Origin: Okamejei kenojei
Taxonomy: Eukaryota
Direction: 5' to 3'
NCBI GenBank assembly: GCA_035221665.1
Contig: CM069143.1
Coordinates: 42,780,001 to 42,843,855 of the forward strand
Length of the DNA stretch: 63,855 nucleotides
Below are positions 19,511 through 50,990 of the stretch, piece by piece (position 1 is the first letter of the stretch; the number at the start of each line of letters is the position of its first letter). The position numbers and the translations under genes were made by a program. The notes beneath the pieces were generated by a model. It was not told the origin of the DNA. It ran no database searches and was given only the letters and a program-made list of their open reading frames with translations.

Positions 19511-20335
19511 GGAAGTGGCGGTGCTGCCCTGCAGCTGCGGCTCGCCTGCAGTCCGTTTGTCTTTTTTTTCGGTTTTCTTTTGTCCTGTTGTTTTAGTTTA
19601 TTCAGTTTATTTTAGGTGTGTATGTGTGGGGGGGGGCTGGGAGAAACATGTTTTTGACTCTTCCCTCGGGGGGGGGGGATGCAACCTTTTCTTGTCGTAT
19701 CCCCCGTCTCCATCTCCGTCTGCGCTGAGGCCTAATCGCGGAGCTGGCGGCCTCCAACTGGGACCAGGTCGGTGCTCCGGAGGCAGAACCAGGACTTACC
19801 TACGCGGGGCTGGCCGACTTCAGAGCTGTGGTGGCGTTGAGGCGGCGGCAACCCGATTTTGGAGCCTCGGAGGCTCGGCCACGATCCCAGTGGACTCGGC
19901 CACGGGCCCAGTGGACGACAACATCGGGAGCTCGCAGGTCCCAGGTTGATGACCGGTTCTCCGGAGCTCCCGGAACAACAGCTTTGTCCGCTGGTCTGGA
20001 GGGTGGCAGCTTCGTCCGCACCGAGCCGCGGGGTTTGAACCGGCCCGTTCGCGGAGCTCAGATTCGGCCGCGGGATTTACCATTATCCGACGGGGTCACA
20101 ACATCGGAAGCCTGGATCGCCTCAACGCAGAGGGAGAACAAGGAGGGAAGAGACAAGGACTTTAAGACTTTTGCCTTCCATCACAGTGAGGAGGTGCCTG
20201 GTAGACTAACTGTGGTGGATGTTAAATCTGTGTTAATTGTGTGTTTTGTTATTTTATTCTATGATATGTCTGCAAGGCACGAAATTTCGTTCAGACTGAA
20301 AAGTCTGAATGACAATAAAGGATACTTTGACTTAC
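19511..20335 (+). mobile_element. GC-rich non-coding composite retroposon, copy 1
   Basis: GC head, T-rich and G-run block, GC-rich body, TCCATCACAGT/ACTGTGGTGGA hairpin, tail stem-loop then TGACAATAAA. Architecture shared with 41478-42517 and 50745-50990. Confidence 0.7.
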
Positions 20336-20579
20336 TTTTTAAATGCATAGCCCTGTTAGCAGTTCCTCATTGGGCTTCCCGATCTCTCCCTCATCTACTC
20401 CCTTCCCAAGCGCCAATCTGTTGGCCTTCCACAATTCAATCACATCCCTGAACCCCTCACAAGAGCAGCTGATCAAAACTTTCCCTTCTACCCTTAAGAT
20501 TCCTGTCAAGTTTTCCTTTATTGTGAAATGAACAAAGGGAGGGTCTTTTTCTTGATTGATTATGCAAGATTAGAGACAC

Positions 20580-20830
20580 AGGAGGAGCCTGGTCAGGATT
20601 CACCGCACAGAGCCCAGTCCCTCCACGCATTAGAGTCTCCCAAACCCTGCAGAGTAGTTATTAAGATGGTTGATCCATGGGCGGTTCCTGCTGGGGCACA
20701 AGTCGTGGGCCTGATCAACCCCGGCTGGGTTGGCTGGGCGAGGGTGTCTGATGTTGTGGGACCCTAAACACTGGATGACCCCAGGTCACATCACTGAGGA
20801 TGCGTCCCAGCGCATCTAGAAGATGTATAT
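20580..20830 (+). mobile_element. Probable Hero/R2-like (RLE) LINE 3' end
   Basis: Remnant RWL..DPW..AGAQV then a structured UTR (ctgatcaaccc..gagggtgtctgatgtt..gacc..acatcactga.gatg). Family recalled from fish elements, not searched. Confidence 0.4.
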
Positions 20831-21447
20831 TATTCACATCGAGAATTCCTGATTATAGAAAACATGCATTATATCATTTTGAAGCGGCATTGGTTTGCCA
20901 TGCTCTTAATGTTAACTTAATCCACCATTCCTCATGATAAAGAATTTAGTGTGTTCACTGAAAATCATCTAATATGTAATTGCTGCTACAATACTGCACA
21001 AATTGTATTCAACATTGTAATTAACTTTAAATTGATATCACATATACAGTATAACATTGTGTTGTTCCACACTCATGTTATGAGTGTTTCATGTAGGTTA
21101 TTGCTTCACTTGTTATTTCATTTTATGTTCACAAATAAAGCAATCCCTCTCTTCCAGATTACAGATCCACCTATCATTTTGAGTATTTACCAGTAGTACA
21201 TTTTGAACATTGTTTTTTAGGGCAAGTAAATGATTTATAAAAGATTTACCAATGTTTATTTTGTGATTAAAAGTTATAATCAATTTGAATATTAAGTCTT
21301 TAATCTAGGTTAATTCTAATTGTTCAAATTAAATTTCTATCTAAAATATCAATAGGTTTTGCTTTTTTGGATACTGTGTGATTACTCCACATTCCAGCAT
21401 TTTCTATTTTTTTTATCATTCTAATTTTGTTTTCTTTACATATGTAG

Positions 21448-21555
21448 GCATTTACAGTTGTTGCAATCTTTAATGCAATGACCTTTGCCTTGAAAATTAC
21501 ACCCATATCTGTGAAAGCCCTGTCAGAGGCATCCGTTGCTGTGGGCAGATTTAAG
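21448..21555 (+). CDS. ABCC5: ABCC5-like exon (108 nt), TM6
   Basis: tag|...|gtataa; AFTVVAIFNAMTFALKITPISVKALSEASVAVGRFK. Confidence 0.95.
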
Positions 21556-21799
21556 GTATAATTTTTGAACTTCAATGAAATACTCATTTACCTTGCAAGT
21601 GTTGTAGTATATTTAAGACACCGAAAACAGGTGTTCAGATAGTACATTGATATTTATTGATAATGTTGATTATCCCTGAATCTATTAGTCACATCTAGTT
21701 ATGTTAACCTAAAGGACTGTTCAAGAGTCAAAAGGACCGCACTATGCCTTTGTAGCATTATTTGGTAGGAAATGTATGCTTGTAAGCAGGGACACATGA

Positions 21800-21957
21800 A
21801 GTTTGCTGTTACTTCTGAAATGAGATGCGTCCAACAGCATAGCACACCCACAGTATTGAACCAAAATGTCAGCCTTGTATTTATACTTAAATTGCTGGAA
21901 TAAGATCTAATTGTGACTGACGATTTGAGTGCTACTCACTGAGCCACAGCTGATACA
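21800..21957 (-). mobile_element. Ancient Deu-domain SINE (SacSINE1-like)
   Basis: ccaacagcatagcacacccacagtattg..tgtcagcct..gagtgctactcactgagccacagctga resembles the reverse of the Deu-SINE head and core. Confidence 0.55.
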
Positions 21958-22255
21958 TCTCCAACTGTAGTGCAAATGACAGATTAAAGATTGTGATTGA
22001 GGATACCCAGCATGCCCCTCAAATATATCGTAGAACTCAATCTATAACGTTAATGGGTTGTTTTAATTCTCCAAATGTAGGTGTATTTATAATATGCCTT
22101 TTGAGAAAGGAGAATCTCCAACAAAACAATACAAAGTGTGTTTAATTCACTTATTTTGCCGCAACTATTTATTCAGCTGTTTGCTTTCCCCTGAGAATAA
22201 TTGATTTTTTTAAACTGATTATGTGTTTACTCAATCTTCCTGCTCTGACTTGTAA

Positions 22256-22546
22256 AGGCCTGTCCCGCTGTACGATGTAATTCAAGAGGTCTCCCGAGTT
22301 TAAAAAAAAACCAAACTCGTGGTAAGTACGTAGAATGTACAGAGCTCGGGACGTCTCTTAACAGCTCGTAACGCTAACGGCAGGTACTCGGGAAACGCGG
22401 TAAGCTCGTGAAGACTTTTCAACATGTTGAAAAATATCCACGAGAGCCCCGAGTACCTACGAGCGGCTATTACCGTAATTCTCCGAGTTCGAATCAGGGG
22501 AACTCGGGAGAACTCTTGAATTACCTCGTACAGTGGGACAGGCCCT
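22256..22546. mobile_element. PIF/Harbinger-type MITE
   Basis: TIRs of about 45 bp (AGGCCTGTCCC.CTGTACGA.GTAATTCAAGAG.TCTCCCGAGTT); TAA TSD at 22253-22255 and 22547-22549. Confidence 0.85.
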
Positions 22547-24261
22547 TAAAAAGGTATCTTAACATTTTTAATGCCTTTTTGTGGCTTTGCTGCTAGATGA
22601 TAACAAAAAGCAGTTGAATTTTTTAATGCTTATTTTAAATACTTTTCTTTACTGAATGGTGGAAAGTGTTTGCTAATTAAAGATTCCAGTCTAAATACCA
22701 TTTACCGATTGAAACGAAGGCAATTTCTACAAACATTAATGAATTTGACTAAAACAGTATTTGTTGACTAAAACAGCTGTAGTTGTGCCTATTCAGCAGT
22801 TGCTATTAAACCATATGTTTTGCCCAGCAAAACCAGCACTGCCAAGATCTTGTCTGAATTTGAAGAATTGCCAAGCTTGCAAATCAGAATTTTGTAAATG
22901 CATGAACAAATTTGTCCATTAACTTCAAATTAAGTTATTTTTTTCTTGTCCATTTGAAGTCCTCATAATTCCTCTTAAAATTAACATTTTGGTTTAAATA
23001 TGTAAGATTTAAATCTTCAACCCAATCATGAATTCGTCTACAAATTCCTCTGTAATTTGCACCATCTGTTGGGTATTCTGTGCCACAGAAAATAACATGG
23101 AGCTCTCATTTGGGTTGAACTCACTATTATACATTACAATGGCATTATGCTGAATAATACAATAAAAATAGCAATTCCGTGCCAAATTAGACTTATTTGC
23201 AGTATTTATATGCTTACACAAGCTTCTTTCATTCCACTTGACTCAGCTATCATCGACCTGTAATTTATTTTAAATGCTATCATATTCAGTGTCCCATACC
23301 ATTTTATTTAATGTAGTTTCCTTTTGAAAGATGCTAAATTATTTTCCTCAGCTTCCTTAGCTAGAAAGTTCTGCACTCTGACCACGAGGAATTAAGACAT
23401 TTCACCTTATTTTCAAGATAGATTTATCTGCAATGATCTTGAATTTTTAGCCTTGAGTTTTGGATTGCAACTCAAGTGGAAACATTTCAATTCCATCCTA
23501 CATAACCCATTAATAATTTTAAAGACCTCAGTTAAGTTAGTTTCATGTTTTCTCATGTACGGGGAAAAGACTCCAATCTTTTCAATATTTCCTGATATCA
23601 ATAATCTCTTCTTTCTGGTCCTAACATTGTAACTTTTCATTTTATAACTCTTCCAGTATTTCTGTATCTTTTTCGTAGTATGGGCACAGGCATGTACTCA
23701 GTACAATATATCCAGTTTGTCCTGTTCTACTTTTTAATTCAGTAGCTTTGGAAATCAATCCCAGTGTTTCATTGGAAGGGAAATAGCAAATTGGCAACCT
23801 GCACCTGAATCTATTTTGTATACCTATTTCTATTTATGTTGCATTTGAAGGAAATGTCAAATATGCTGCACTTTAACTCTGGAAATAATCTTCTAGAACA
23901 AAACTTTCACGAGAGAAAAATTAAGGAGGAATTAATTGAATTTAAAATTCAATAGATTTCAATAAATTACCACATATGAAGATGAAGGTGCTTTCAGTTC
24001 GCAGAGATGTGAGGAATTACCAAATGAAATAAAATTGGCAACTTTTCATCCATCTCAAAATCAAGGCAATTGCAATTAGTAACTGATGTCACATCTTTAT
24101 CTTTGAAACGTGCCCATCTAAATCTAAATCAGGTGAAATTTCTTGCAAAATTAAAATCTTTGTGTATTCCTCGAGTACTAAATTCAGAAGGTTGATAATA
24201 TTTTAGCAAGATTGCAAGAAGAGCTTTGATCAAAATGTATTCCCTCTTCTCAATTCTATAG

Positions 24262-24627
24262 CATTTACTTTTAATGGAAGAACTAGAAGTTGTAAGAAAA
24301 CAGCCCATTAGCTCACATAATGACATAGAATTTTGTGATGCTACCTTGGCATGGGACAGCAGCAGTACTTCTTCTTTTGAGAGAAAAGCAGATTCAAACA
24401 AGGATGATGTGAAGAAGATTAAAAAAAGAACGGCGAGAGGGATGGAGAAGAAAAAGTTGAATCTTTATGTTCAAGCTGACTCAGAAAATTCACTTGTCAA
24501 ACAAAATGATCATCTGTTGCATGGCAATAAATTGCAATTTGATCACGACAACCTACACGTTAACTTATCATCTCCAAAGCCCAGATTCCAGGCAACCCTG
24601 CACCACATCAACTTAAATGTCAAACAG
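24262..24627 (+). CDS. ABCC5: ABCC5-like exon (366 nt), TMD1-NBD1 linker and regulatory insertion
   Basis: tag|...|gtatga; HLLLMEELEVVRKQP..IEFCDATLAWDSS..RFQATLHHINLNVKQ. Confidence 0.93.
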
Positions 24628-24654
24628 GTATGAGAATGTATAAGGCATGATCAG

Positions 24655-25535
24655 AAAGTTTGCAGATGGTACCATAGACATTGAAAATGGTTATCAAGAA
24701 ATATAGCAGGATTTTAAGCAAAACACAAGTATGAGGGAACTTAGTGGGTCACGCAACATCTGGGGAGGACACGAACAGGTGATGTTTCGGTCAGGACCCC
24801 TGCTGAGATCCTCCAATACATTGTGTTATGCTCAAGATTCCAGCATCTGCAGTCTCTAGTGTTTACAGATCGATCTTGATCAGCTGAGGAAATGGGTTAA
24901 GGAATGGCAAATGGAGTTTTGTAACTGTGGAGTGTTGCATTTTGGAAAGTCAAACCAAGGCAGAACATTCACAGTGAATGATAGGACACTGGGGAATATT
25001 GAAGAACAGAGGGATTCAGGAGGATAGGGACATAGTCCTCTGAAAGTGTTCACTTTTGGTCATCCTCCTATAGGAAAGATACCATTACACTGAAAAGAGC
25101 GTAGAGAAGATTTGGGGGGGTGGGGGGTGGGGGGGGGGGGGTTGTGTGCTCAAGTGTCTCAGCTATAGGAAAAGATTTGGCAGACTAGGACTTTATTCTG
25201 GCTAAGGTGGCTAAGGTGTGATCTTATAAAGATGTATAAAATAATGAAGGGAATAGAAAGGGCGAATCACAGAATCATTTTCCCAAGGTAGTAGCGTCAA
25301 GAACTGCAGGGCATAGGTTAATTTGAGAAAGAAAAGATGGGAATCTAAGGGTCATCATTTTCATACAGTAACAATTTTTAAAATACATTTGTACACGTAA
25401 CTGGATAGAAGAGGTTCAGAGGGATATGGGTCAGGCAAATGCAAATGATACTAGCCTGGATCGTGCATTTTAATTGGCATGGACAAATTGGGGCAAAGGG
25501 CCTCTTCCCACGCCATATGACTGCATGACTCTTGG
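24655..25535 (+). mobile_element. Old CR1 LINE 3' part containing a PLE-tail insertion (about 24715-24868)
   Basis: Degenerate FAD..WQMEF..LHFGKSN RT text and CR1 3' UTR. Confidence 0.65.
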
Positions 25536-25609
25536 TATACATAAATAATATTTTCGAAATGTTACGTTTCAGGATTCCTACCCTGTTTTAATTTTTCATT
25601 TGGAACATA

Positions 25610-28600
25610 ACCATATAACCATATAACAATTACAGCACGGAAACAGGCCCTCTCGGCCCTTCCAGTCCGTGCCGACCATTTGTTTTCCCCTAGTCCCATC
25701 TACCTGCACTCAGACCATACCCCTCCATTCCCTTCACTTCCATATACCTATCCACTTTACTCTTAAATGTTAAAATCGATCCTGCCTCCACCACTTCTGC
25801 TGGAAGCTGATTCCACACAGCCACCACCCTCTGAGTAAAGAAGTTCCCCCTCACGTTACCCCGAAACCTCTGTCCCTTAATTCTCATGTCATGCCCTCTT
25901 GTTTGAAACTTCCCTACCCTCAATGGGAAAAACGTATCCACGTCAACTCTGTCTATCCCTTTCATCATTTTAAAGTCCTCAATCAAGTCCCCCCTTAACC
26001 TTCTGCGCTCCAAAGAATAAAGACCTAACTTGTTCAACCTTTCTTTGTAACATAGTTGCTGGAACCCTGGCAACATTCTAGTAAATCTCCTCTGTACTCT
26101 ATTTTGTTGACATCCTTCCTATAACTAGGCGACCAAAATTGTACACCATACTCCAGAATTGGTCTTACCAATGCCTTGTACAATTTTAACATTACTTCCC
26201 TACTCCTATATTCAATGCTCTGATTTATAAAGGCCAGCACACCAAAGGCTTTCTTTACCACCCTATCTACATGCGATTCAACCTTCAGGGAACTATGCAC
26301 AGTTATTCCTAGATCCCTCTGTTCCACAGCATTCCTTAATTCCCTACCATTTACCATGTACGTCCTATTTTGATTTGTCCTGCCAAGATGTAGCACTTCA
26401 CACTTATCAGCGTTAAACTCCATCTGCCATCTTTCAGCCCACTTTTCCAAATGGCCCAAATCTCTCTGTAGACTTTGAAAATCTATTTCATTATCCACAA
26501 CACCACCTATCTTAGTATCATCTGCATACTTACTTATCCAATTTTCCACCCCATCATCCAGATCATTGATGTACATGACAAACAACAGTGGACCCAACAC
26601 AGATCCCTGAGGCACCCCACTGGTCACCGGCTTCCAACCTGACAAACAGCCATCCACCATTACTCTCTGACATCTCCCATTCAGCCACTGTTGAATCCAT
26701 CTTGCTACTCCGCCATTAACACCCAAAGAATGAACCTTCTTAACCAACCTTCCATGGGGAACCTTGTCAAAGGCCTTACTGAAATCCATATAGACAACAT
26801 CCACTGCTTTACCCTCATCAATTTCCCTAGTTACCGCTTCAAAAAATTCAATAAGGTTTGTCAAACATGACCTTCCAGGCACAAATCCATGTTGACTGTT
26901 CCTGATCAGACCCTGTTTATCCAGATGCTTATATATATTATCTCTAAGTATCCTTTCCATTAATTTGCCCACCACTGACGTCAAACTAATAGGTCTATAA
27001 TTGCTAGGTTTATTCTTTGAACCCTTTTTAAACAATGGAACAACATGCGCAGTACGCCAATCCTCCGGCACTATTCCCGTTTCTAATGACATTTGAAATA
27101 TTTCTGTCATAGCTCCTGCTATTTCTACACTAACTTCCCTCAATGTCCTAGGGAATATCCTGTCAGGACCTGGAGACTTATCCACTTTTATATTTTTCAA
27201 AAGTGTCAGTACTTCCTCCTCTTTGAATCTCATAGTTTCCATAGCTACTCTACTCTTTCCCCTTAACTCACCGAGTTCAATATCCTTCTCCTTGGTGAAT
27301 ACCGAAGAAAAGAAATTGTTCAATATCTCCCCCATCTCTTTTGGCTCTGCAGATAGCTGTCCATTCTGGTTCTCTAATGGTCCAATTTTATCCCTTGTTA
27401 TCCTTTTGCTATTAATATAGCTGTAGAAACCCTTTGGGTTTACTTTCACCTTTCTTGCCAAAGGAACCTCATATCTTCTTTTAGCCTTCCTAATTTCTTT
27501 CTTAAGATTCTTTTTACATTCTTTATACTCCTCTAGCACCTCATTTACTCCATGCCTCCTATAATTATTGTAGATATCTCTCTTTTTTCGAAACAAGTGT
27601 CCAATTTCCCTTGAAAACCATGGCTCTTTCCAATTTTTACTATTTCCTTTCAACCTAACAGGGACATAAAGATTCTGTACTCTTACAATTTCCCCTTTAA
27701 AAGTCCTCCATTTCTCTTCTACATCCTTCCCATGAAACAAAGTGTCCCAATTCACTCCTTTAAAATCCTTACGCATTCCCTCAAAGTTAGCCTTTCTCCA
27801 ATCAAAAATCTCTACCCTAGGTCCAGTTCTGACTCTCTCCATAATTATATTGAAACTAATGGTATTGTGATCACTGGTCCCGAAGTGCTCACCAACGCAT
27901 ACCTCCGTCACCTGACCTGCCTCATTTCCTAACAGGAGGTCCAGCAGTGCCCCTTCTCTGGTCGATACCTCTATGTACTGCTGCAAAAAACTACCCTGCA
28001 CATATTTTACAAACTCCAAACCATCCAGCCCATTTACAGAATGTGTTTCCCAGTCTATTTTTGGAAAATTGAAATCTCCCACAATCACTACCTTGTGCTT
28101 ACTACTAATATCTGCTATCTCCTTACATATTTGCTCTTCCAATTCACGCTACCCATTTGGCAGTCTATAATACACCCCTAAAAGTGTTGCTACACCGTTC
28201 CCACTTCTCAGTTCCACCCAAATAGCCTCCCTAGACGAGCCCTCTAATCTATCCTGCCAATGCACTGCTGTAATATCTTCTCTGACAAGCAATGCAACAC
28301 CTCCCCCTCTGGTCCCTCCAATTCTATCACACCTGAAGCAACGAAATCCTGGAATATTTAGTTTCCAATCACAGCCCTCCTGCAACCATGTTTCACTGAT
28401 TGCCACAACATCATATTTCCAGGTGTCAATCCAGGCTCTAAGTTCGTCCACCTTACTTACAATGCTCCTAGCATTAAAATATGCACATTTTAGAAACCCA
28501 CCATCCCTTATTCTCGGTCTATTATCTTTTTCATCTTTCTCGCCTACATTTTGGATCCGAGTGCTTCCCTTCTCTGCCTCTTGCCCCACACCCTGACCCC

Positions 28601-28779
28601 TAGCCCCCTCTACCAGAGTCCCTCCCCCCAGCCTTTCTAGTTTAAAGTCTCCCCAGTAGCCTTTGCAAATCTCCCTGCCAGGATATTGGTCCCCCTCGGG
28701 CTCAAGTGCAACCCGTCCTTTGTGTACAGATCATGCCTTCCCCAAAAGAGGTCCCAGTGATCAAGAAACTTGAATCCCT
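25610..28779 (-). mobile_element. Young CR1 LINE: end of ORF1 esterase plus nearly intact ORF2 (APE-RT)
   Basis: ORF1 end FLDHWDLFWGR..DGLH; EN at 28149-28589; 702-aa ORF with DFSKAFD, GVPQGSVLGP, YADD; one TAG near 28150 and one frameshift near 26095; TSD AACATA at 25604-25609 and 28780-28785. Confidence 0.95.
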
Positions 28780-29049
28780 AACATAGAGACCTATTTTTGA
28801 AATTGAATTCAAAACTATTTAGCAAACATAAATAAAGTCTTTATTATATCATGGTAATGAAAGTCTGTGGTCGATGTGTCAGTAAGGAGGGAACAGTTAT
28901 TTAAATTCTGGTCAGATAGATCATGACTTTTAGTAATCTTTCAATAATATAGTTTAATCCCCAAAACCGTGTTCCTCTGTGTCAATCTGATTGGTATTGT
29001 CAGGAAAAAGGAAAAACCATTTTATCAATTTGTGTCAACAATCTTTAAT

Positions 29050-29102
29050 GATTATAATCTGATTAATTTATTGATAAACAATAAATTAATCAGATTATAA
29101 TC
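29050..29102. repeat. Perfect 24-bp AT-rich palindrome with 5-nt loop
   Basis: GATTATAATCTGATTAATTTATTG-ATAAA-CAATAAATTAATCAGATTATAATC. Confidence 0.95.
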
Positions 29103-29212
29103 CTTTGGTCAGAGAACATTGCAGATTAGAAAGCGCACTAAATTCCAGACTGTAGAAGAAGACAACCTCAATATTCAATGAATTGCTTTTTAAAAAAGAT
29201 AGTTTAAATTGC

Positions 29213-29345
29213 CGAGACACAAAGAATTGCAGATGCTGGAATCGTGTGCAATACACAAGGTATTGAAGGAACTCAGCGAGTCTGGCATCTGCGGATGAAA
29301 ATGGACAGATGACATGTAGGGTTGGATTCCTTCTTCAGACTGATT
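29213..29345 (-). mobile_element. PLE 3' tail
   Basis: gacacaaagaattgcagatgctggaatc..ccttcttcagact. Confidence 0.7.
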
Positions 29346-29351
29346 TGAGAA

Positions 29352-30955: not shown

Positions 30956-31139
30956 CCTCGGGGAGAGATGGGGAGAGAAATCTGGAAAAGAGAGGTAAGG
31001 GGAGGGGTGGTGATCAGCAGATGCGCGGAGTACGTGAGAATGGCTTGAGGTGAAAAGGAAGCAAATATGGACAGATAAAGAAAGAAGAAGAGGAGAGAAA
31101 TGTAAAGATGGAAGGTGTTGGGGGATGGGAAAGAGGCAG

Positions 31140-34050: not shown

Positions 34051-34142
34051 TGTGGATTAATTTTCAAAGTAGGATCTGTGTACCTTGGGTGCGTAAAGGG
34101 ATGACAAGGATGATGGGTGATAGGTTAAAGAATGAGTCTTAA

Positions 34143-39566: not shown

Positions 39567-39586
39567 CCCTAACCCTAACCCTAACC
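39567..39586. repeat. Short interstitial telomere-like repeat (CCCTAA)3
   Basis: CCCTAACCCTAACCCTAACC. Confidence 0.7.
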
Positions 39587-39609
39587 AGCTTTCATTATTG
39601 ATATTGGTA

Positions 39610-40210: not shown

Positions 40211-41477
40211 GAGAGACAAATAATGAGGAAGATTTAGGACAAAAGAGATTTGCTGATTACTGGACTGTTTATTATTATTTCAAACCCTGAAAAAAAAAGA
40301 AGCAATCTCAAATGCAGCAAATCCAGCAAGATAACAGTTAGGCTTAGACTGTCTAGTGACAAGTAACATTTGCAAATGCCATTGTCAACTATACTAATTA
40401 TTTTGGTGTCATTGCAATTTTACTATATTGTTAACTATATTGTAATCCAGATTGTTAATGTACATATTAAACAGCAGCCGACTCCTGCCCCCTTGCAACA
40501 CTCAACCTGTTAAAGGCCTCCAACCAGATAAAAGACCTCTCCACAAATATCCTTTAACTCCGTCCTCCAGGTCAATTTTAAAATCAATTAGCTAGCTCAT
40601 CATGGATTCCATGTGATCTAACCTTCTAGACAAGCTTACCCTGTGAGACCTCGTCAAAGGCCTTGCTAAAGCCCATATTGATAATGTGCTCTGCCCTGTC
40701 CTCATCAATCTTCTTGGTGACCACTTCAAACATTTTGATCAGATTTGGGGGACACCATTTCCCATGCACAAAGCCATGCCGACAATCTCTAATCAGTCCG
40801 TGCCTATCCAAATGCTGGTAGATCCTGGCCCTAAGAATTCCTCCAACAACTTTCCCACCACTGACATCAGGCTCACCGACCTGTAATATCCCCTTGCTTG
40901 TCTTTGTATCCCTTTTTAAATGACAGAACAACATTAGCTACCTTCCCGTCTTCTGTAATTTCACCTCTGGCTGAAGATGATTCAGATATTCCTGCAAAGT
41001 CCTCTGCAATTTTTTCCCAAGCTTTCCACAAGGTCCAATTATGTGCTTGGTCTGCCCTTGGAGATTTATCGACCTTAATGAACTTTAAAACCACCAATAC
41101 ATCTTCTTTGTCAGTTTGTATATGATCACAGGACCTATGCCTCAATGTCAGCTTTCATGATCTTCTCCTCAGTGAAAATAGATGAGTATTCACTAAAGAT
41201 CTCTCCTAATTTTTATGGTTTCACACAAAGTTGGCCATGTTGATCTTTAAGAGGAGCAATTATTTACCTTTCCACCCTTTTACTTTTAATATACCTATCG
41301 AAATTCATGGGATTTTCCTTTACCTTGGTTGCCATCTCCATTTCATGTCTTCTATTTGCCCTCCGGATTGTCTTCTTAAGTATAATCATACACTTCTTAT
41401 ACTCACGGAGCGATTTGCTTGATCCGGACTGCCTAATTTGGATGCATCCCTCCTTTTTCCTGACCAGAGCCTCAATA

Positions 41478-42517
41478 AACAGTGGGCGAGCGCGACTGAC
41501 GTTGCAGCGGCCCCTACAGCCTGTCTGTCTTTTTTTGTTTTTTGTCTAGTTAAATGTAGTTGTTTGTGTTTTTTTTGTATTGTTTTCTAACTGTGTATAT
41601 GTGGGGGGTGGGGGGGGGGGAAGGGGGAAACATTTTTAATCTCTTCCCTGCACGGGAGACCTGACTTTTTCCCTGTCAGGTCTCCGTTGTCGTTGGGGCC
41701 TGGTGCCGTGGAGTGGCCTCCGACCGGGACGACCTGGGGGCTCCAGTCGCGGAGCTGAGAGCTTACCGTCGTGGGGCTGGCCGGCCTCGGAGCGTGGGGA
41801 GCGGTGGTGGGTGGCCGCTGCGGCCCGACTCCGGGCTCCAGTTCCGGCTGCTGCCCGACTCCGGGGCTTCGGCTCCGGCTCGACTCCGGCTCCGGCTCCG
41901 GCTCCGGTCCGACTCCGGGGCTCCAGCTCTGGCTCCGGCTCCGGCTCCGGCTCCAGCTCCGGCTCCAGCTCCGGCCTGACTCCGGGGCTCTGGCTCCGGC
42001 TCCAGCTGCAGATTGCTGACGGTGGACTGTCGGGATGTCGGGAGCTCGCGGGTCCGGGTGGGGGGCCGCTCTCCGGAGCTCCGCAACACAACTTCTCCAG
42101 CCCGTATCGCGGGGTTGGAACGCCCCGGAGCGGGGCCGAGTATCGCCCGGCGCGGCTTTAATGGCCGCGGGACATTCCAGCGCCCGCCGGGGGCTCCAAC
42201 TTTGTGACTTTGGGCCTGGAGCGGGGCCGTACATCGCCCGGCGCGGCCTCAATGGACATGGGACTTAACACCGCCCGCCTGGGGCTTCGACATCGGGAGA
42301 GAGATGGTGCGGGGGAGAGAGAAAAACTTTGCCTTCCATCACAGTGAGGAGGAGATCCACTGTGATGGATGTTTGTGTGAATTTAATTGTTTGCGTGTTT
42401 TTCTATGAATTGTTCTGTTTGTTTGTTTGTATGGCTTGTAGAAACGGAGTTTCGTTCGAGCCTCTTTGAGGTTCGAATGACAAGCAATAAAATCAAATCA
42501 AATCAAATCAAATCAAA
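41478..42517 (+). mobile_element. GC-rich non-coding composite retroposon, copy 2, with (CTCCGG)n VNTR
   Basis: Interrupts a CR1 with AATA on both sides; 12-bp hairpin at 42335-42369; tail stem at 42455-42477; (ATCAA)n tail. Confidence 0.75.
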
Positions 42518-42904
42518 TACTTTTGAAAGTATCACACTTGCCAGCCATCCTCTTACCTGCAAACAGACTTTCCCCATCAACCTCTGCAAATTCCCACCCC
42601 CTAATGCCTACAAATCTGCCTTAATCCAATTTAGGTCCTTGTCGAGCCAGTGCTATCCTTCTCCATAACTAAATTAAAACTAATAGAATTATGGTCACTA
42701 GTCCCAAATTGCTCCTTAATTGATAGTTCTGTCACTTGTTCTGTCTCATTCTTTAAGAAGAGGCCCAGCATTGTGCCCTCCCTAGTGGGGCCCTCTACAT
42801 ACTGATCACGGAAACTTTCTTGGACCACATTTACCAATTTCCACCCCATCCATGCTCTTTGCACTATGGGAGACGTGCTTGATATTAGGGAAGTTGAAAT
42901 CACC

Positions 42905-43215
42905 TACCTTAGGGTAGGGGAAACAAGAACCAGAGGTTTAAGGTGAGGGTGGGGGGGGGGGGGTGGGGGAGATTGAATAGGAACCTGAGGGGCAACCTTT
43001 TTACTCAAAGGGTGATAGCTATATTGAACAAGCTTCCAGAGAAGGTATTTGAGATAGGTACTATCACAATGTTTAAAAAACATTTGGACAGGTACATGAA
43101 TAGGATAGGTTTGGAAGGTTATGAACCAAATGCAGGCAGGTGGGGCGTGTCTGATTGGCATGGGGACGTTGGGCTGAAGGGCTTGTTTCCACACTGTATG
43201 ACTGTGACTATGATG
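42905..43215 (+). mobile_element. CR1 LINE 3' end
   Basis: NLRGNLFTQRVI..FKKHLDRYM..GRW. Confidence 0.8.
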
Positions 43216-43926
43216 CTATTATTTTTTACAGTATGCACTCTCCCACAGTTACTCCTCTAATTCAAGCTGCCTAGTTCCATCAAAGTGATTATTCCCTTCC
43301 TATTTCTAAGCTACCCACATAGCCTCACTGGAGGATATCCCAAGAACATGCTCCCTGCACATTATAGTTATGTCCTTCCTGATCCAAAGGGCAAGCCATC
43401 TCCTCTCTTACCAGCATTTCTATCAGTCCTGTAGCATCTATTCCCCAGGAACAATGTGATTACAGTCTTACCCTTTTCTCAGCATTATTTCTGCTGTGGC
43501 TATAATAAACTAGATGCCCAGAGTTCATGCACTCTATGACTGCAAGTCAATAGTCAGTACAAAACATTTCCCGCTGTAGGAGGGGAGAGCAGTGAATTAT
43601 GATGCCAGTTTCGTTGCGGTGGTAGTTGAAGCCAAAAGTTAGAAAGTAAAATGGAACTATCATATAGAGCCCAGTCCAATTGAGATCAATAACAGCCTGA
43701 TTGTTCCAGGAATGATTTCTCACTGAGCCATGGTCCAATTCTCCAGCAATTCTTTGAAAAAAACATTGACAAGAAATAATTCACTTGATGCATGCTTAAC
43801 TTATGAATTATTTTGATGCATGCTTGACTTAGGATGTACTCAGAAAACCTGGCGAATTTCTGGAGTGATGAAAATCGCTCTGGAAATGGTCTTTATTGCA
43901 TTCTTTCTGAGGAAATCTATTTATTT

Positions 43927-45705
43927 CATAGAAACGTAGAAACAGAGAAAATAGGTGCAGGAATAGGCCATTCAGCCCTTCGAGTCTGCACCGCCATTCA
44001 ATATGATCATGGCTGATCATCCTGCCTTCTCTCCATACCCCCTGATCCCCTTAGCCACAAGGGCCACATCTAACTCCCTCTTAAATATAGCCAATGAACT
44101 GGCCTCAACTACCTTCTGTGGCAGAGAATTCCAGAGATTCACCACTCTCTGTGTGAAAAATGTTTTTCACTTCTCCGTCCTAAAAGATTTCCCCCTTATC
44201 CTTAAACTGTGACCCCTTGTTCTGGACTTCCCCAACATCGGGAACAATCTTCCTGCATCTAGCCTGTCCAACCCCTTAAGAATGTTGTAAGTTTCTATAA
44301 GATCCCCCCTCAATCTTCTAAATCTAGTGAGTACATGCTGAGCCCATCCAGTCTTTTTTCATATGAAAGTCCTGACATCCCAGGAATCAGTCTGGTGAAC
44401 ATTCTCTGTACTCCCTCTATGGTAAGAATGTCTTTCCTCAGATTAGGAGACCAAAACTGTCCACAATACTCCAGGTGAGGTCTCACCAAGACCCTGTACA
44501 ACTACAGTAGAACTTCCCTGCTCCTATACTCAAATCCTTTTGCTATGAATGTTAACATACCATTCGCCTTCTTCACTGCCTGGTGCTCCTGCATGCCTAC
44601 TTTCAATGACTGGTGTACCATGACACCCAGGTCTCATTGCATCTCCCCTTTTCCTAATCGGCCACCATTCAAATAATAGTCTACTATCCTGTTTTTGCCA
44701 CCAAAGTGGATAACCTCACATTTATGCTCATTATACTGCATCTGCCATGCATTTGCATACTCACCCAACCTATCCAGGTCACCTCGCAGCCTCCTAGCAT
44801 CCTCCTCACAGCTAGCACTGCCCCCCAGCTTCGTGTCATCCGCAAACTTGGAGATGTTGCATTCAATTCCCTCGTCCAAATCATTAATATATATTGTAAA
44901 TAGCTGGGGTCCCTTGCGGTACCCCACTAGTCACTGCCTGCCATTCTGCAAAGGACCCGTTTACTCCTACTCTTTGCTTCCTGTCTGCCAGCCAGTTCTC
45001 TATCCACATCAATACTGAACCCCCAATACTGTGTGCTTTAGGTTTGCATTCTAATCTCTTATGTGGGACCATGTCGACAGCCTTCTGAAAGTCCAGATAT
45101 AACACATCCACTGTTCTCCCTTATCCACTCTACTAGTTACATCCTTGAAAAATTCTATATGATTCGTCAGACATGATTTACCTTTCATAAATCCATGCTG
45201 CCTTTGTCCAATGATTTCACCCCTTTCCAAATGTGTTGCTATTCCATCTTTAATAACTGACTCTAGCAGTTTCTCCACTACCAATGTTAGACTAACTGTT
45301 CTGTAATTCCCCGTTTTCTCTCTCCCTCCCTTTTTAAAAAGTGGGGTTACATTACCTATCCTCCAATCCTCAGGAACTACTCCAGAATCTAAATAATTTT
45401 GAGAAATTATCACTAATTAATCCACTATTTCTGGGGCTACTTCCTTAAGTACTCTGGGATGCAGCTTATCTGGCCCTGGGGATTTATCAGCCTTTAATCC
45501 ATTCAATTTACCTAACACCACTTCCCAGCTAACCTGGATTTCACTCAGTTCCTCCATCTCATTTGACCCCCGGTCCCCTACTATTTCGGCAGATTATTTA
45601 TGTCTTCCTTAGTGAAGACAGAACCAAAGTAGTTATTCAATTTGTCTGCCATGTCCTTGTTCTCCATGATCAATTCACCTGTTTCTGACTGCAAGGAATC
45701 TACAT
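43927..45705 (-). mobile_element. CR1 LINE, 5'-truncated (RT)
   Basis: RT fragments ([21 protein letters not shown]); TAGAAAC tail. Confidence 0.92.
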
Positions 45706-46474
45706 TTCACATAGTTCTGAACTAAGCAGTTCTGGGCAACCATTTCCACAATACATGCCATCAATTTACCACATCTTTAAAAATAAAGGTGTTTGAGAAT
45801 AAGGAGACATAGTAACATTGCTGATGAAATGCAGATGGTAAGAATAGACCTGTGGGTTCTTGTGTCCTACATAAATATGCGGAATGAAGTGCAAGATAAA
45901 ATACTTGACCACAGACTTTGGAAGAAACAACCATTATAGACCTCAATTATCTATTGTTTTTATTGTTAGAAGCAATAAATGAGTATTTATTTATTGTGTA
46001 TGTTCTTGTTATCCTAATTGCTATGGCAATCATTGTGTAGAGTTAATGGGCTGTAGGAGTGGCGTCGGCAGTTCCATTTGCTGTAACCAAAATCCATTAT
46101 AAAGGGGTCCATTAAAACGAGGGTTTACTGCACTGTATTTCATGTCTCAGTTACTCATTTAGTTTTCCCAGATGGTGTTTACTGATAAAAATCTAATCTA
46201 CATTTAAATTCATTCATACGAATCTATCATCTCCTCGAGGAGTTGTGTACATAGGTAGTCTATTTATTCATTGGAACAGGACAAGCCTATGCAATCATTC
46301 AAAGTTGTTCTGCAATTCAACTACTGCATGCAATTTGTACGTTTTTCCCTTATTATCTTGTGCAACTCTTGTTGTTCTTAGCAAAGAAAAATATTTTGAA
46401 ATATTGTTTTAATTGATTAGTTTTGAATTTAGCCAAGCAAGAAACGTTGTCATCTAGACTGGACAAGCTAGTCA

Positions 46475-46790
46475 TGGCATTCCCTCTATCTCTATCTCCC
46501 TCCCCCACCCTAGTCGCACTAGCTTCTCATTTTCAGACCACAAACAGCTTACAATGGCTTGTTCCCTTTATCATCGATACTTTTTTGCATATCTTTCATT
46601 CATTGTTCTTTATCTCTCCACATCACCGTCTATATCTCTTGTTTCCATGATCCCTGACCAGTCTGAAGAAGGGTCTCGACCCGAAACGTCGCCTATCTCC
46701 TTCGCTCCTTAGATGCTGCTGCACCCGCTGAGTTTCTCCAGCTTTTTGTGTACCCTCGATTCTCCAGCATCTGCAGCTTCTTCGTTAACA
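46475..46790 (+). mobile_element. PLE 3' UTR/pLTR copy, inverted partner of 47572-47887
   Basis: About 97% identical to the reverse complement of 47572-47887; CATCTA at 46451-46456 and 46791-46796. Confidence 0.9.
46660..46694 (+). ncRNA. Minimal type I hammerhead ribozyme core, PLE-borne, sense to the host pre-mRNA
   Basis: CTGAAGA (46663-46669), extra A, stem II GGGTCTCGACCC, GAAAC, GTC (predicted cut after 46690); palindromic ACGT at helix III; helix I pairing is weak. Confidence 0.7.
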
Positions 46791-47571
46791 CATCTATATT
46801 AATATTGGATTAGAATCCAAAATACGACACACACTTTAGTCATGATTAAATTTACAAGGAAGAGCATGCTCACTGTAGTTTATGACTCTCATTAATCCTG
46901 TAATTTTCTCTCATCAAATTATTCTGGTTGCTGTTTCCTATGTTCTTTCAATATCTGAAATGTCTAAGCCAATATTTAGTAGATTGTTGCTTCTGAGGAA
47001 TTATTTAATTCTGAAGAGCTCTTTCCCACCTGAAGTTCAAAATTGCAGTCAGCTGATTTTTAATGAAGGAAAGAGGGCAAGATCCCTTCTTCATTTCAAC
47101 TGCATACTAGCTCCCTGCTCATCTCCAGTTTCTTCCAAGGAAAAGCTAAAATCCGCTCCCAACTTTTCTACAACCAGCAGGTGGACAGTAATGAAATTCA
47201 AACCCCAGAATATATGGAAGAAATTATTGCCACAACTCAACTTGAAAGCATTGAAAGAAGTGTTGCCTCTTTTACACATGTTTAACAGACAAATACATCA
47301 TATTTTCAATCTTGTTGCCACAACCTTCTCTGCACCACTGTGCGCTAGATGAATTGACTTGTTTTGTTTTCCTACCAGGATTCCACTAATATCACAAAGC
47401 AGCTGGGTTCTTAATTCAAGCAAGTTACTTCCTGTTTGTAGGTATAGACATTATGTTGTGGAAAAATAACTGACATGAACATTTTGGATTAATCCCTGAC
47501 AAAAGTAATTAATTTCATCTGAATGGTCATGCCTTGGGTAATAAAATTATTTAAACAGAAGTAACTAGGAT

Positions 47572-49040
47572 TGTTAACGAAGAAACTGCAGATGCTGGAG
47601 AATCGAGGGTTACACAAAATGCTGGAGAAACTCAGCGGGTGCAGCAGCATCTAAGGAGCGAAGGAGATAGGCGACGTTTCGGGTCGAGACCCTTCTTCAG
47701 ACTGGTCAGGGATCAGGGAAACGAGAGATATAGATGGTGATGTGAGAGATAAAGAACAATGAATGAAAGATATGCAAAAAAGTATCGATGATAAAGGGAA
47801 CAAGCCATTGTAAGCTGTTTGTGGTGTGAAAATGAGAAGCTAGTGCGACTAGGGTGGGGGAGGGAGATAGAGATAGAGGGAATGCCAGGGCCCGAGGGCT
47901 GAGGGAGAGGTGGGAGGGGGAGGAGACAGCAGGGGTTAACAGAATTGAGAAAATTCAATGTTCAAGCCCAAAGGATGCAAACCCCCCAAGCGGAATATGA
48001 GGTGCTGTTCCTCCAACTTGCGGTGTTGCTCACTCTGGCCATGGAGGAGGCCCAGGACCGAGAGGTCGGATATGGAATGGGAGGGGGAGTTGAAGTGCTG
48101 AGCGACCGGGAGGTCGGGTTGGTTTTTGCGGACCGAGCGGAGGTGTTCGGCGAAACGATCGCCAAGCCTCCGCTTGGTCTCACCGATATAGATCATCTGG
48201 CATCTGGAGCAGCGGATGCAGTAGATGAGGTTGGAGGAGGTGCAGGTGAACCTCTGTCGGACCTGGAAGCACTGCTTGGGTCCCTGAAAGGAGTGGAGGG
48301 GGGAGGTGAAGGGACAAGTGTTGCATTTCTTGCGGTTGCAAGGGAAAGTGCCCGGGGAAGGAGTAGAGCGGGAGGGGAGGGAAGAATTAACAAGGGAGTT
48401 GCGGAGGGAGCAGTCTTTGCGGAAGGCAGACAGGGGGGGAGATGGGAAGATGTGGCGGGTGGAGGGGTCACGTTGGAGGTGGCGAAACTGGCGGAGGACT
48501 ATCTGTTGTATTTGCCGGCTGGTGGGGTGAAAGGTGAGGACCAGGGGGACTCTGCCCTGTTTGCGAGTGGGGGAATGGGGAGAGAGGGCAGTGTTGCGGG
48601 GTATGGAGGAGACCCTGGTGCGAGCCTCATCAATAGTGGGGGAGGGGAATCCCCGTTCACTGAAGAATGAGGCCATTTGTGATGACCTGGTGTGAAACGC
48701 CTCATCCTGGGAGCAGATGCGGCGTAGACGAAGGAATTGGGAATAGGGGATGGAGTCCTTACAGGAAGCGGGGTGGGAGGAAGAGTAGTCCAGGTAGCTG
48801 TGGGAGTCAGTGGGTTTGTAGTGGATGTCGGTCAGGAGTGTATCACCTGCAATAGAGATTGTGAGGTCAAGGAATGGTAGGGAAATGTTGGAAATGGTCC
48901 AAGTGTATTTGAGTGCCGGATGGAAGTTGGTGGTGAAATGAATGAAGTCAGTCAGTTGTGTGTGGGTGCAGGAGGTGACACCAAAGCAGTCGTCGATGTA
49001 ACGGAGGTAGAGGTCGGGGATGGGGCCCTGGTACGCCGAG
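47572..49040 (-). mobile_element. Young Neptune-type PLE (RT C-terminus, Zn linker, GIY-YIG, 3' UTR)
   Basis: YLRYIDDCFG; CNRKKCNTC linker; SSNLIYCIRCSRCQMIYIGETKRRLGDRFAEH; 14-bp TSD AACTAGGATTGTTA at 47563-47576 and 49041-49054. Confidence 0.93.
47669..47703 (-). ncRNA. Minimal hammerhead ribozyme core
   Basis: Reverse complement reads CTGAAGAAGGGTCTCGACCCGAAACGTC, identical to 46663-46690. Confidence 0.7.
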
Positions 49041-49055
49041 AACTAGGATTGTTAC

Positions 49056-50665
49056 TGTTTAAGAAGAAACTGCAGATGCTGGAAAATCAAAGATAGACAA
49101 AAATGCTGGAGAAACTCAGCAGGTGCAGCAGCATCTATGGAGCGAAGGAACTAGACAATGTTTCGGGCCGAAACCCTTCTTCAGACTGACGGTGAGGGTG
49201 GGTGGGGCGGGAATAAGAATGTAAGAGGAGGAGCCAGAAGGCTGGGGGAGAGCTGAGAAGGGGAGGAGACAGTATGAACTACCTGAAATTAGAGAAGTCA
49301 ATGTTCATACCACTGGGGTACAAACTGCCCAAGCGAAATATGAGGTGCTGCTCCTCCAATTTCCGGTACTCCTCGCTCTGGCTGTTGAGGAGGCCCAGGA
49401 TAGAAAGGTCGGATTTGGAATGGGAGGGGGAGTTGAAGTGCTGAGCCACCGGGCGATCAGGTTGGTTATTGCGAACCGAGCGGAGGTGTTCGGCGAAGCG
49501 ATCGCCAAGCCTACGCTTGGTCTCACCGATGTAGATCAGCTGACATCTAGAGCAGCGGATGCAATAGATGAGGTTGGAGGAGGTGCAGGTGAACCTCTGT
49601 CGCACCTGGAATGACTGCTTGGGTCCTTGAATGGAGTCAAGGGGGGGAGGTAAAGCGACAAGTGTAGCATTTCTTGCGGTTGCAAGGGAAAGTGCCCGGA
49701 GAGGGTGTGGTTTGGGTGGGAAGGGACGAATTGACCAGGGAGTTACGGAGGAAGCAGTCTCTGCGGAAAGCAGACAGGTGTGGAGATGAGAAGATGTGGC
49801 AAGTGGTGGTGTCACGTTGGAGGTGGCGAAAATGTCGGAGGATTATTTGTTGTACGTGATGGCTGGTAGGGTGGAAGGTGAGGACTAGGGGGACTCTGCT
49901 CTTGTTATGAGTGGGGAGATGAGGAGAGAGTGCAGTGTCACTGGGTATCAAAGAAACCCTGGTGAGAGCCTTATCTATGGTAGGAGAGGGGAACCCCCGT
50001 TCCCTGAAGAATGAGAACATCTCCGATGCCCTGGTATGGAACATCCTGGGAGCAGATGCGGTGTAGACAAAGGAATTGGGAGTTAGGGATGGAGTCCTTA
50101 CAGGAAGCAGGATGGGATAAGTGTAGTCCAGATAGCCATGGGAGTCAGAAGGTTTATAGTGGATGTCGGTCAGAAGTCTATCACCTGCGATGGAGATAGT
50201 GAGGTCTAGAAATGGTAAGGAAGTGTTGGAAATGGTCCAGGTATATTTGGGTGCCGGATGGAAGTTAGTGGTGAAATGGGTGAAGTCAGTGAGTTGTGTG
50301 TGGGTGCAGGAGGTAGCACCAATGCAGTCGGTAGCACCAATGCAGTCATTGATGTAGCAGAGGTAGAGGTCGGGGATGGGGCCCTAGTATGTCTCGAACA
50401 AGGATTGTTCGACATACCCTACAAAGAGGCAGGCATAGCTAGGGCCCATGTGCATGCCCATAGCTACGCCTTGTATTTGGAGGAAATGGGAGGAGTCAAA
50501 TGAAAAGTTATTTAGGGTAAGGACTAGCTCCGCTAGGCGGAGGAGAGTATCTGTAGATGGGGATTGGTTGGTTCTCCGGTTGAGGAAGAAACTGAAGGCT
50601 TTGAGACCCTCCTGGTGGGGGATGGAGGTATAGAGCGACTGGACGTCCAAGGTGAAGATGAGGGA
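49056..50665 (-). mobile_element. Neptune-type PLE (RT core through GIY-YIG), degenerate
   Basis: DVQSLYTSIP, QIQGVAMG..GPSYACLF, CNRKKCYTC, LIYCIRCSRC..YIGETKRR. Confidence 0.93.
49154..49187 (-). ncRNA. Hammerhead core variant
   Basis: Reverse complement reads CTGAAGA-A-GGGTTTCGGCCC-GAAAC-ATT. Confidence 0.55.
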
Positions 50666-50744
50666 TAATGTAAGTTTTTGTCAATTATGAGTTTAAAAAA
50701 ATCACAAATTGATTAATGTAACATGAAGTGTTAACTTGACCTGC

Positions 50745-50990
50745 TTGCCCCGACTGCAGATTGTTTGACTGCCTCGACCGCGGGAGAACAAGAGGAAGAA
50801 GATTGAACTTTATTTGCCTTCCATCACAGTGAGGAATGTGGAATCCACTGTGATGGATGTTTATGTTGACTTTTATGTGGTTGTGTGTCTTGTTGCTTTT
50901 CACTTAGTATGGCTGTATGGTAACTCAAATTTCACTGTACCTTAATTGGTACACGTGACAATAAACTGACCTTGAAACGTTGAAACCTTG
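50745..50990 (+). mobile_element. GC-rich composite retroposon, copy 3 (5'-truncated)
   Basis: Hairpin TCCATCACAGTG/CACTGTGATGGA at 50820-50857; tail stem TGTACC/GGTACA; TGACAATAAA; (CCTTGAAA)n-like tail. Confidence 0.7.

Follow-up and report, generated by a model that had tools for sequence, protein, structure and literature searches.

Three copies of one retroposon family

The window, that is the whole analysed stretch of 63,855 nucleotides from Okamejei kenojei, contains three copies of one dispersed, non-coding retroposon family, all in the same orientation:

19509..20339, + strand: copy 1, full length; lineage with ETS-like head (family CCGGAAGTGGCGGCGC), tail type A
19509..19555, + strand: copy 1, GC-rich head, predicted internal Pol II promoter (putative function)
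19681..20130, + strand: copy 1, CpG-rich body with degenerate internal repeats and recurring GGACTTACC and ACATCG motifs; conserved ORF absent
20131..20169, + strand: copy 1, purine-rich stretch 5' of the hairpin, found across lineages
20170..20223, + strand: copy 1, central conserved hairpin (arms 20177-20188 and 20208-20219)
20285..20319, + strand: copy 1, Rex1 type-A terminal stem-loop and TGACAATAAA
41482..42518, + strand: copy 2, full length; GTGGGCG head, tail type A
41817..42007, + strand: copy 2, VNTR (GCTCCG)n / (CTCCGG)n, seen only in the copy-2 lineage
42328..42373, + strand: copy 2, central hairpin (arms 42335-42346 and 42358-42369)
42450..42518, + strand: copy 2, type-A terminal stem-loop, AATAAA and (AAATC)n tail
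50747..50990, + strand: copy 3, 5'-truncated; tail type C
50813..50861, + strand: copy 3, central hairpin (arms 50820-50831 and 50846-50857)
50930..50965, + strand: copy 3, type-C terminal stem-loop, near-identical to the autonomous Rex1 end of the C lineage

The boundaries were refined to about 41482-42518 for copy 2, about 50747-50990 for copy 3 and about 19509-20339 for copy 1, with CCGGAAGTGG as the family start; the head of copy 1 is followed by a T-rich tract and G-runs up to about 19680, and a short (ACTTT)n-like tail closes the copy at about 20339. The 19-mer TTTGCCTTCCATCACAGTG of the central hairpin occurs three times in the window (20170, 42328 and 50813, all +; chance mean 0.05) and has 9,016 exact matches in the skate's own genome, with 0 for the control. 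Within the window, copies 1-3 are the sole matches to a profile derived from 90 copies in the genome, and the motifs and the three copies quoted in the first-pass annotation were all found where it had placed them.

Full-length copies are about 0.75-1.2 kb long and have sharp 5' ends with unrelated flanks: the insertions are dispersed, high in copy number and defined at their ends. The copy-2 lineage is young (its matches are 87-97% identical), and copy 3 is 81-84% identical to full-length copies with a CTCF-type head. One contig assigned to another organism lacks the insertion at the site orthologous to copy 1, and in two others the copy-1 tail abuts the same flank. Target site duplications (TSDs) of at least 7 nt were found in five of 38 copies, compared to 1-2% in controls, thus a minority of copies do carry TSDs.

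Coding capacity is absent: Pfam searches of six open frames over copies 1 and 2 returned only two low-complexity matches below the cut-off, and the longest ATG-ORF shifts in strand and start across 30 copies, with no ORF conserved. ARAGORN predicts no tRNA gene in the window and Rfam has nothing there at gathering score; five weak Rfam matches around copy 1 were dismissed, as all are far under that score. Our search, which covered published papers, found no description of this retroposon family, and the first-pass annotation had not recognised it as a described one.

The copies might be nothing but 5'-truncated remnants of the 3' UTR of some autonomous LINE, given that their tails are LINE tails and that no head was detected in 50 of the 90 copies. 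In the remaining 40 a defined head is present, separated from the hairpin downstream by about 530-1,200 nt. None of 90 consecutive copies has a reverse transcriptase running into the hairpin, and the four loci with upstream Rex1 protein matches are separate or nested insertions. Conversely, the hairpin is present in 0 of 77 Rex1 3' ends, the sole flagged case (L014) being a neighbouring copy on the opposite strand. The element is thus not a LINE 3' UTR, an explanation that we regard as largely refuted.

Tails shared with three Rex1 lineages

The final 30-45 nt of the element are of three types, A, B and C, and each type is common to a different autonomous Rex1 lineage. Autonomous Rex1 elements measure about 3.1 kb and encode Exo_endo_phos, RVT_1 and PF09004 domains, and the donor lineages lie on separate branches of the protein tree. 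Tail A has the form (A)TTTCGTT-stem-AATGACAATAAA, the same as in Rex1; it is the frame alone that is common, as no Rex1 was found whose A-type stem is identical to that of copy 1 or copy 2. Tail C has the form TTTCACTGTACC-loop-GGTACAYGTGACAATAAA, as at the Rex1 end. Of 30 loci with tail B, three are ends of Rex1 ORFs and 21 are this element. Full-length 5' ends of B- and C-type Rex1 were not recovered, and for the C type all 30 loci are truncated or interrupted. The element ends in microsatellites and a poly(A) tail is absent. The earlier reading of a retroposon that is non-coding and non-autonomous and has a tail of Rex1/Babar type is borne out by these matches to autonomous Rex1 ends, and the element likely borrows the Rex1 enzymes for its mobilisation.

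When a tree was built from 53 aligned bodies with strict tail labels, tails B and C were interleaved, and supported branches force at least three and at least two changes; this interleaving indicates that tails were likely swapped. The element has likely exchanged tails among the three Rex1 lineages.

SVA elements have an L1-type poly(A) tail and TSDs, and SVA and LAVA are assembled from Alu-like, VNTR and ERV- or LINE-derived parts. The element described here resembles SVA (PMC2912911) in being long, GC-rich, non-coding and probably mobilised in trans, and it has a VNTR in one lineage; it differs by the absence of detected Alu- or ERV-derived parts, by a VNTR that is not family-wide and by its Rex1-type tail. 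The first-pass annotation had proposed an SVA-like composite with a shared layout but differing bodies. Its layout motifs and the (CTCCGG)n VNTR of copy 2 are indeed present, but the bodies are not unrelated modules: they are diverged homologues that align into one tree, and the composite is therefore just an analogy. An origin from unrelated modules (head, VNTR, hairpin and tail) taken from different repeats would account for this VNTR and for the exchangeable heads and tails, and a second repeat that ends in the CTCF-like 14-mer with which one branch of the family begins (five of 30 loci) could be the donor of this motif. We nevertheless consider such an origin improbable, with homologous bodies across lineages, a VNTR restricted to a single lineage, no donor repeat found for body or hairpin, poly(A) tails missing and TSDs lacking in most copies.

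Terminal stem and central hairpin

The three terminal stems differ in sequence and all pair, as had been described; they fold with z scores of -4.3, -4.0 and -3.7 for copies 1, 2 and 3, respectively. The covariation set consisted of 45 distinct stems from 49 of the 90 copies. Positions 5-9 are paired in 92% of cases compared to a shuffle mean of 79% and a maximum of 86%, and 0 of 5,000 shuffles, a control that ignores relatedness, reached the observed pairing. The type-A terminal stem is thus kept by compensatory changes, and the covariation originally proposed for the terminal stem is supported.

The same does not apply to the central hairpin, which the first-pass annotation had regarded as a structurally selected RNA module. 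Individual hairpins fold with z scores of -1.7, -3.0 and -3.4 (copies 1, 2 and 3); their sequence is conserved and their loop variable. None of the 12 pairs has a two-sided change, the covariation score equals that of shuffled alignments (0.075 versus 0.074) and the stem shows only wobble-compatible changes. For 50 hairpins, RNAalifold predicted a short hairpin of seven pairs in place of the 12-bp stem; this alternative fits the alignment equally well and is likewise without covariation, and single sequences prefer the long stem (-20 to -26 versus -2.5 to -10 kcal/mol). A reading of CAGUGA as an iron-responsive element was compared by eye with the consensus of such elements and dropped because the upper stem is unpaired.

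Heads and transcription

The 5' terminus differs by lineage and is YY1-like, ETS-like, GT-box-like or a CTCF core. A box or B box motifs, searched for as consensus patterns, are absent from the first 200 nt of all seven elements searched; the same 200 nt contain five to seven runs of at least four Ts in each of the seven, and the CpG observed/expected ratio of the tested elements is 0.78-0.98. The absence of tRNA boxes and of a credible ORF, as first noted, is thus confirmed by box search, ARAGORN, Pfam and ORF comparison. The SINE-like tail would fit a Pol III SINE whose small-RNA head has escaped recognition, and SINE2-5_NV is a known SINE with a tRNA head and Rex1 as its partner (PMC3747384). 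We rate this explanation as highly improbable: the boxes are missing, the T runs would terminate Pol III transcripts, and ARAGORN and Rfam are negative. The head composition is instead suggestive of Pol II transcription. In four presumed RNA runs, 69-551 contigs match the element; their strand and start are unreadable and they were not counted as evidence.

Three Rex1 families begin with AAGATGGC, which resembles the YY1 site of L1, CAAGATGGCCG (PMC2912911). A start of this type is found in two of 40 element heads (L058 and L383). When heads were compared with Rex1 5' ends, two of 21 comparisons reached P = 0.002 and four more had P values of 0.012-0.03; the likeness reaches clear significance in the YY1-type head alone. 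These data bear on a further explanation, namely that the element is an internally deleted, 'bipartite' Rex1 that retained the 5' and 3' ends of an old lineage, while its middle later expanded and its head motif drifted. Rex1 and the element indeed have a common layout (RTGGCG head, 30-40 GC-rich nucleotides, T-rich tract), L058 and one Rex1 have an exact 14-mer in common that starts at position 2 of both, and the YY1-like heads belong to two separate lineages. On the other hand, these are just two of 40 heads, the 14-mer, being a promoter motif, may have arisen by convergence, body and hairpin are dissimilar to three full-length Rex1 families and to B and C fragments, and the sources of such elements listed by Kojima 2018 are RTE, Ingi, Vingi and R2 only (PMC5786205). 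On balance we consider a bipartite Rex1 origin unlikely.

One branch of the family starts with a perfect match to the CTCF core motif: a 14-mer corresponding to positions 4-17 of the canonical motif (taken from PMC10589630), with G or T at one position. Exact 14-mers of this kind number 908, and 22 of the first 30 are heads of this element. The match suggests that these heads may be bound by CTCF.

Comparison with known non-coding retroposons

Bipartite non-autonomous LINEs without ORF include RIME, NARTc, RTESINE, Vingi and R2 derivatives (Kojima 2018, PMC5786205). As described there, they are like the element in being non-coding, with a LINE tail, no small-RNA head and presumed Pol II transcription; here the partner is Rex1, which is outside the four clades given in that source. 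Furthermore, the 500-900 nt middle of the element matches no tested Rex1 (three full-length families), its 5' homology is confined to some 14 nt and to a minority of the copies, and its tails come from three LINE lineages.

Sadhu of Arabidopsis has a poly(A) tail, TSDs of 7-16 bp, 39 copies and an unknown partner (PMC2848041). It is likewise non-coding, lacks small-RNA homology and Pol III boxes, and has a pyrimidine-rich tract behind a short motif at its 5' end; the skate element differs by its stem-loop and microsatellite tail, its thousands of copies and its identifiable Rex1 donors. BuceSINE and ManaSINE2 are bird SINEs with GC-rich heads and bipartite AviRTE tails (PMC4844689): a GC-rich head of unknown origin, a putative protein-binding motif and a LINE-derived tail are shared with our element, which is set apart by tails of Rex1 type, a long CpG body, a central hairpin that is conserved and its several kinds of head motif.

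The SINE superfamilies CORE, V and Deu combine a central domain that is conserved with LINE tails that have been exchanged (PMC5786205), and the element resembles them in a conserved core kept through tail exchange; with SINE2-5_NV it has the Rex1 partner in common (PMC3747384). The heads of these SINEs are of tRNA or 5S type and carry Pol III boxes, of which none were found in the element.

Proposed mechanism

We consider it probable that the family is a non-coding retroposon started by Pol II and mobilised by Rex1, with exchanged tails and heads and a retained hairpin. The head (a transcription factor-like motif at position 1, T tract, G-runs and CpG island) would start a Pol II transcript at its first base, and AATAAA would end it. 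The terminal 30-45 nt, which match autonomous Rex1 LINEs at their ends and in which the type-A stem is kept by compensation, would be bound by the Rex1 APE-RT protein, which would insert the copy by target-primed reverse transcription; such insertion would explain the microsatellite tail, the many 5'-truncated copies and the lack of a TSD in most of them. The pattern of tail exchange among the three Rex1 lineages probably arose by template switching, and the first ~15 nt appear to have been exchanged among YY1-, ETS-, GT-box- and CTCF-like motifs with body and central hairpin kept. In what is the weakest step, the sequence-invariant central hairpin would be an RNA protein-binding site that aids competition for the LINE enzyme.

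Significance

Few non-coding retroposons are known that lack a Pol III head; the family is a further one, with Rex1 as a new LINE partner, and it offers SINE-style tail exchange in such a Pol III-headless element with the donors still in the genome: the RNA signals recognised by Rex1 are thus testable via natural tail swaps. The 5'-terminal motif, which changes between lineages, serves as a natural experiment on the way in which a retroelement defines its start site, and presence or absence of copies offers phylogenetic markers. If the CTCF-core heads are bound, the element would scatter CTCF sites genome-wide. In a bolder and less probable reading, the family would be a Pol II-driven 'SINE superfamily' in cartilaginous fishes with both ends swapped round a fixed RNA core (three Rex1 tails; a YY1, ETS, GT-box or CTCF motif at the first position), whose CTCF branch would start from its motif and would have supplied about three quarters of the perfect-consensus CTCF cores in the genome analysed here, seeding lineage-specific loop anchors. 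Skate TAD boundaries bear oriented CTCF sites (PMC10115646), and a retroposon headed by a CTCF core is therefore a testable source of lineage-specific boundaries.

Three copies of a dispersed, non-coding family

The first-pass annotation had placed three sense copies of one family in the window, and all three were borne out, with the sequence as described. Their refined limits and the other features of the window are:

2354-2637 and 25607-25890: 284-bp segment in duplicate, 98% identity
about 19509-20339, sense: copy 1
24262-24630 (+): ABCC5-like exon (E 6e-9); the gene has the orientation of copies 1-3
26034-28730 (-): APE-RT LINE
about 41482-42518, sense: copy 2
47890-50660 (-): GIY-YIG-bearing (Penelope-like) fragments, immediately 5' of copy 3
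about 50747-50990, sense: copy 3, 5'-truncated
54072-54659: tandem array, 30-bp unit, 19 copies
55812-56642 (+): additional RT fragment

The central hairpin, a conserved module of the element, begins with a 19-mer that has exactly three matches in the window, where chance would give a mean of 0.05, and a profile built from 90 genomic copies identified no fourth copy there. Copy 3 is 81-84% identical to copies with a CTCF-type head (the GC-rich 5' terminus) and a type C tail; tail types A, B and C are the last 30-45 nt of the element.

The family is dispersed: the hairpin 19-mer has 9,016 exact matches across the 2.76-Gb genome (control 0), the exact type C tail pattern has 1,181 and the type B pattern 5,037, the last figure including some autonomous LINEs. 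Up to AATAAA, full-length relatives measure 747-1,019 nt for copy 1 (n=24) and 931-1,203 nt for copy 2 (n=14), all with unrelated flanks. A script detected the head in 40, one doubtful, of the first 90 consecutive 19-mer matches on contig C1. In four public runs with four other organism labels, 6,982-12,455 contigs per run cover the element. One contig of run X6 joins the copy-1 flanks without the element, while in runs X11 and X12 the copy-1 tail is joined to the same 3' flank; this single-contig evidence of an empty versus an occupied site points to a lineage-limited insertion. Divergence is 14.2% at CpG sites and 6.3% elsewhere (30 copies), as expected of methylated copies; CpG o/e is 0.78-0.98 in seven representative elements.

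The element is non-coding, in agreement with the initial reading: Pfam gave no credible match to it, and in a set of 30 copies the longest ATG-ORF is inconsistent in both strand and start. The motif ACTTACC is present 34 times in element bodies (1.2 expected; the copies are homologous and the counts hence non-independent), in 27 of 58 GC-body copies, for example at window 19792-19800, and sense GTAAGT in none of the 58; the antisense of the motif is often ATG followed by GTAAGT, a 5' splice-donor consensus. The tRNA A and B boxes, also missing in the initial reading, are absent from all seven representative elements, ARAGORN and Rfam were negative for the element, and the first 200 nt of each representative contain 5-7 runs of at least four T. 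That the element is a Pol III SINE is very improbable; a tRNA SINE with a Rex1 partner is already known (PMC3747384).

Tails shared with Rex1 LINEs

Partner LINEs were searched with PF09004 (50,686 candidates, of which 150 were scored). Full-length ones are about 3.1 kb long, with Exo_endo_phos, RVT_1 and PF09004 domains, an anatomy from which we take them to be Rex1. Rex1 anatomy is covered in PMC6274825, and rays are reported to have the highest Rex1 coverage (PMC13343379).

The suggested comparison with autonomous Rex-Babar 3' ends gave matches for all three tails. For type A, the element and Rex1 ends have the frame TTTCGTT-stem-AATGACAATAAA in common; in type C (TTTCACTGTACC-loop-GGTACAYGTGACAATAAA) the Rex1 end and copy 3 are near letter-identical; type B follows Rex1 coding sequence at 3 of 30 loci and the central hairpin at 21. 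In a Rex1 protein tree (34 of the 77 fragments with a typed tail), the C-tailed LINEs group together with support 100 and the A-tailed ones with support 96, and two B-tailed LINEs make up a further branch (100). The remaining 'B' row is an A-tailed Rex1 sitting inside a B-tailed element. TSDs of at least 7 nt flank 3/24 copy-1 and 2/14 copy-2 relatives, compared with control rates of 1.8% and 1.1%; four full-length Rex1 showed none. Besides types A, B and C there is a fourth tail, shortened to GTTCCTAACGGA..AATAAAG and lacking the terminal stem (the stem-loop at the 3' end), in 4 of 90 copies (L035, L038 and L043 among them).

Rex1 protein matches lie upstream of the hairpin at four loci among 90 copies: at two, the element's own head sits between match and hairpin, one match is antisense, and at the fourth locus a truncated copy lies directly against a mid-RT fragment. 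The central hairpin is found at 0 of 77 Rex1 3' ends, the sole flag being an adjacent copy in the opposite orientation. The alternative raised in the first-pass annotation, that the copies are the 3' UTR of a LINE, therefore fails, and we give it next to no probability. At locus L134 (G000:C4:4203300-4210500, minus strand), an element with a CTCF-type head and a type B tail is interrupted, within the 3' arm of its central hairpin, by a Rex1 copy whose 5' junction shows a GTG overlap; the element was already present while that Rex1 lineage was active.

Terminal stem and central hairpin

In copies 1-3, folding gives z of about -4 for the terminal stem and -1.7 to -3.4 for the central hairpin. 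The terminal stems differ in sequence yet pair, as first noticed: positions 5-9 of the type-A stem are 92% paired versus 79% in shuffles (0/5,000; 45 distinct sequences from 49/90 copies, two stems possibly from neighbouring LINE tails, the shuffles ignoring relatedness), with compensating C-G/U-A and A-U/G-C exchanges at three positions.

The claim of a structurally selected central hairpin was not supported by covariation. In an alignment of 50 of the 100 copies, 43 of them distinct, the hairpin is 95.5% paired, but two-sided changes are absent and the score does not exceed that of shuffles. Across all 100 copies, 4 of 5 recurrent changes preserve pairing, compared with 12 of 63 rare changes; conservation of the inner unpaired flanks (GCCT, AGG, TGTT) is 89-99%, and the loop ranges from 7 to 24 nt; a rival short hairpin is compatible with the same conserved bases. 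The central hairpin is conserved in sequence and compatible with a stem, and the changes do not support selection for structure. Its arms contain TCACAGTG and CACTGTGA, which correspond to the 5' end of miR-128 and to the 8-mer target of that miRNA; this likeness is probably coincidence.

Heads of the element

The first ~15 nt vary by lineage around a common RTGGCG, with YY1-, ETS-, GT-box- or CTCF-like motifs (CCAAGATGGCGGCGC; CCGGAAGTGGCGGCGC; GTGGGCG or GGTGTGGCG; CCACCAGG(G/T)GGCGC). Three Rex1 families (L139, L305/L299, L282) begin with AAGATGGC and a T-rich tract, resembling the YY1 site at L1 nucleotides 12-22, which may direct initiation (PMC2912911). In L305 the ATG of this start begins a reading frame that continues into the endonuclease and whose first residues are hydrophobic. 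Among 21 head-to-Rex1 comparisons, P was 0.002 solely for the YY1-type head, twice, and element bodies matched none of the Rex1 families tested. A bipartite Rex1 origin, compatible with the same mechanism, is a possibility we hold at rather low probability; the bipartite LINEs named in section 23 of PMC5786205 are solely RTE, Ingi, Vingi and R2.

The CTCF-type motif is the element terminus, with flanks unrelated except for an A/T bias at -1, and the flank supplies the first three positions of the CTCF motif. Genome-wide, its 14-mer has 908 exact matches against 6 for the control, and 272 of the 908 lie within the strict head pattern. All of the first 30 matches, sampled on C1, appear repeat-associated: element heads number 22 by script and 24 by eye, and five (L345, L354, L358, L364, L367) belong to a second repeat that terminates in the same 14-mer followed by CAC or CTC. 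This repeat possibly represents an LTR end and is a candidate donor of the CTCF head. At L350 the 14-mer adjoins a tRNA-SINE-like head. Exact consensus matches are a minor fraction of real CTCF sites. The CTCF-type head is identical to positions 4-17 of the canonical motif as quoted in PMC10589630.

Exchange of ends and proposed mechanism

The bodies of 53 copies with a detected head could be aligned, head motif and tail omitted, and form three supported lineages: that of copy 1 (mostly ETS-like heads, tail A), that of copy 2 (GTGGG or GTGTG heads, tail A) and a CTCF-headed one (tails B and C). Tails B and C are interleaved, and supported branches force at least three and at least two changes (three C rows in all; midpoint rooting for drawing only), with the exchange point at the AAT|TTC junction. 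This is one family that has exchanged tails and head motifs; a true composite element is improbable.

The element resembles Sadhu (PMC2848041), GC-headed bird SINEs (PMC4844689) and bipartite LINEs (PMC5786205) in how it works, and it swaps tails in the manner of core-domain SINEs; it differs from each of these in a defining respect. The literature searched, Repbase and Dfam not covered, yielded no published description of the family, which de novo repeat libraries likely hold unnamed.

We consider it probable that the element is a non-coding retroposon mobilised by Rex1 protein, with its ends exchanged. Pol II would initiate at the head and transcripts would be polyadenylated at AATAAA; the central hairpin would serve protein binding, Rex1 protein would insert copies by a target-primed route, and template switching would be the origin of the exchanged ends.
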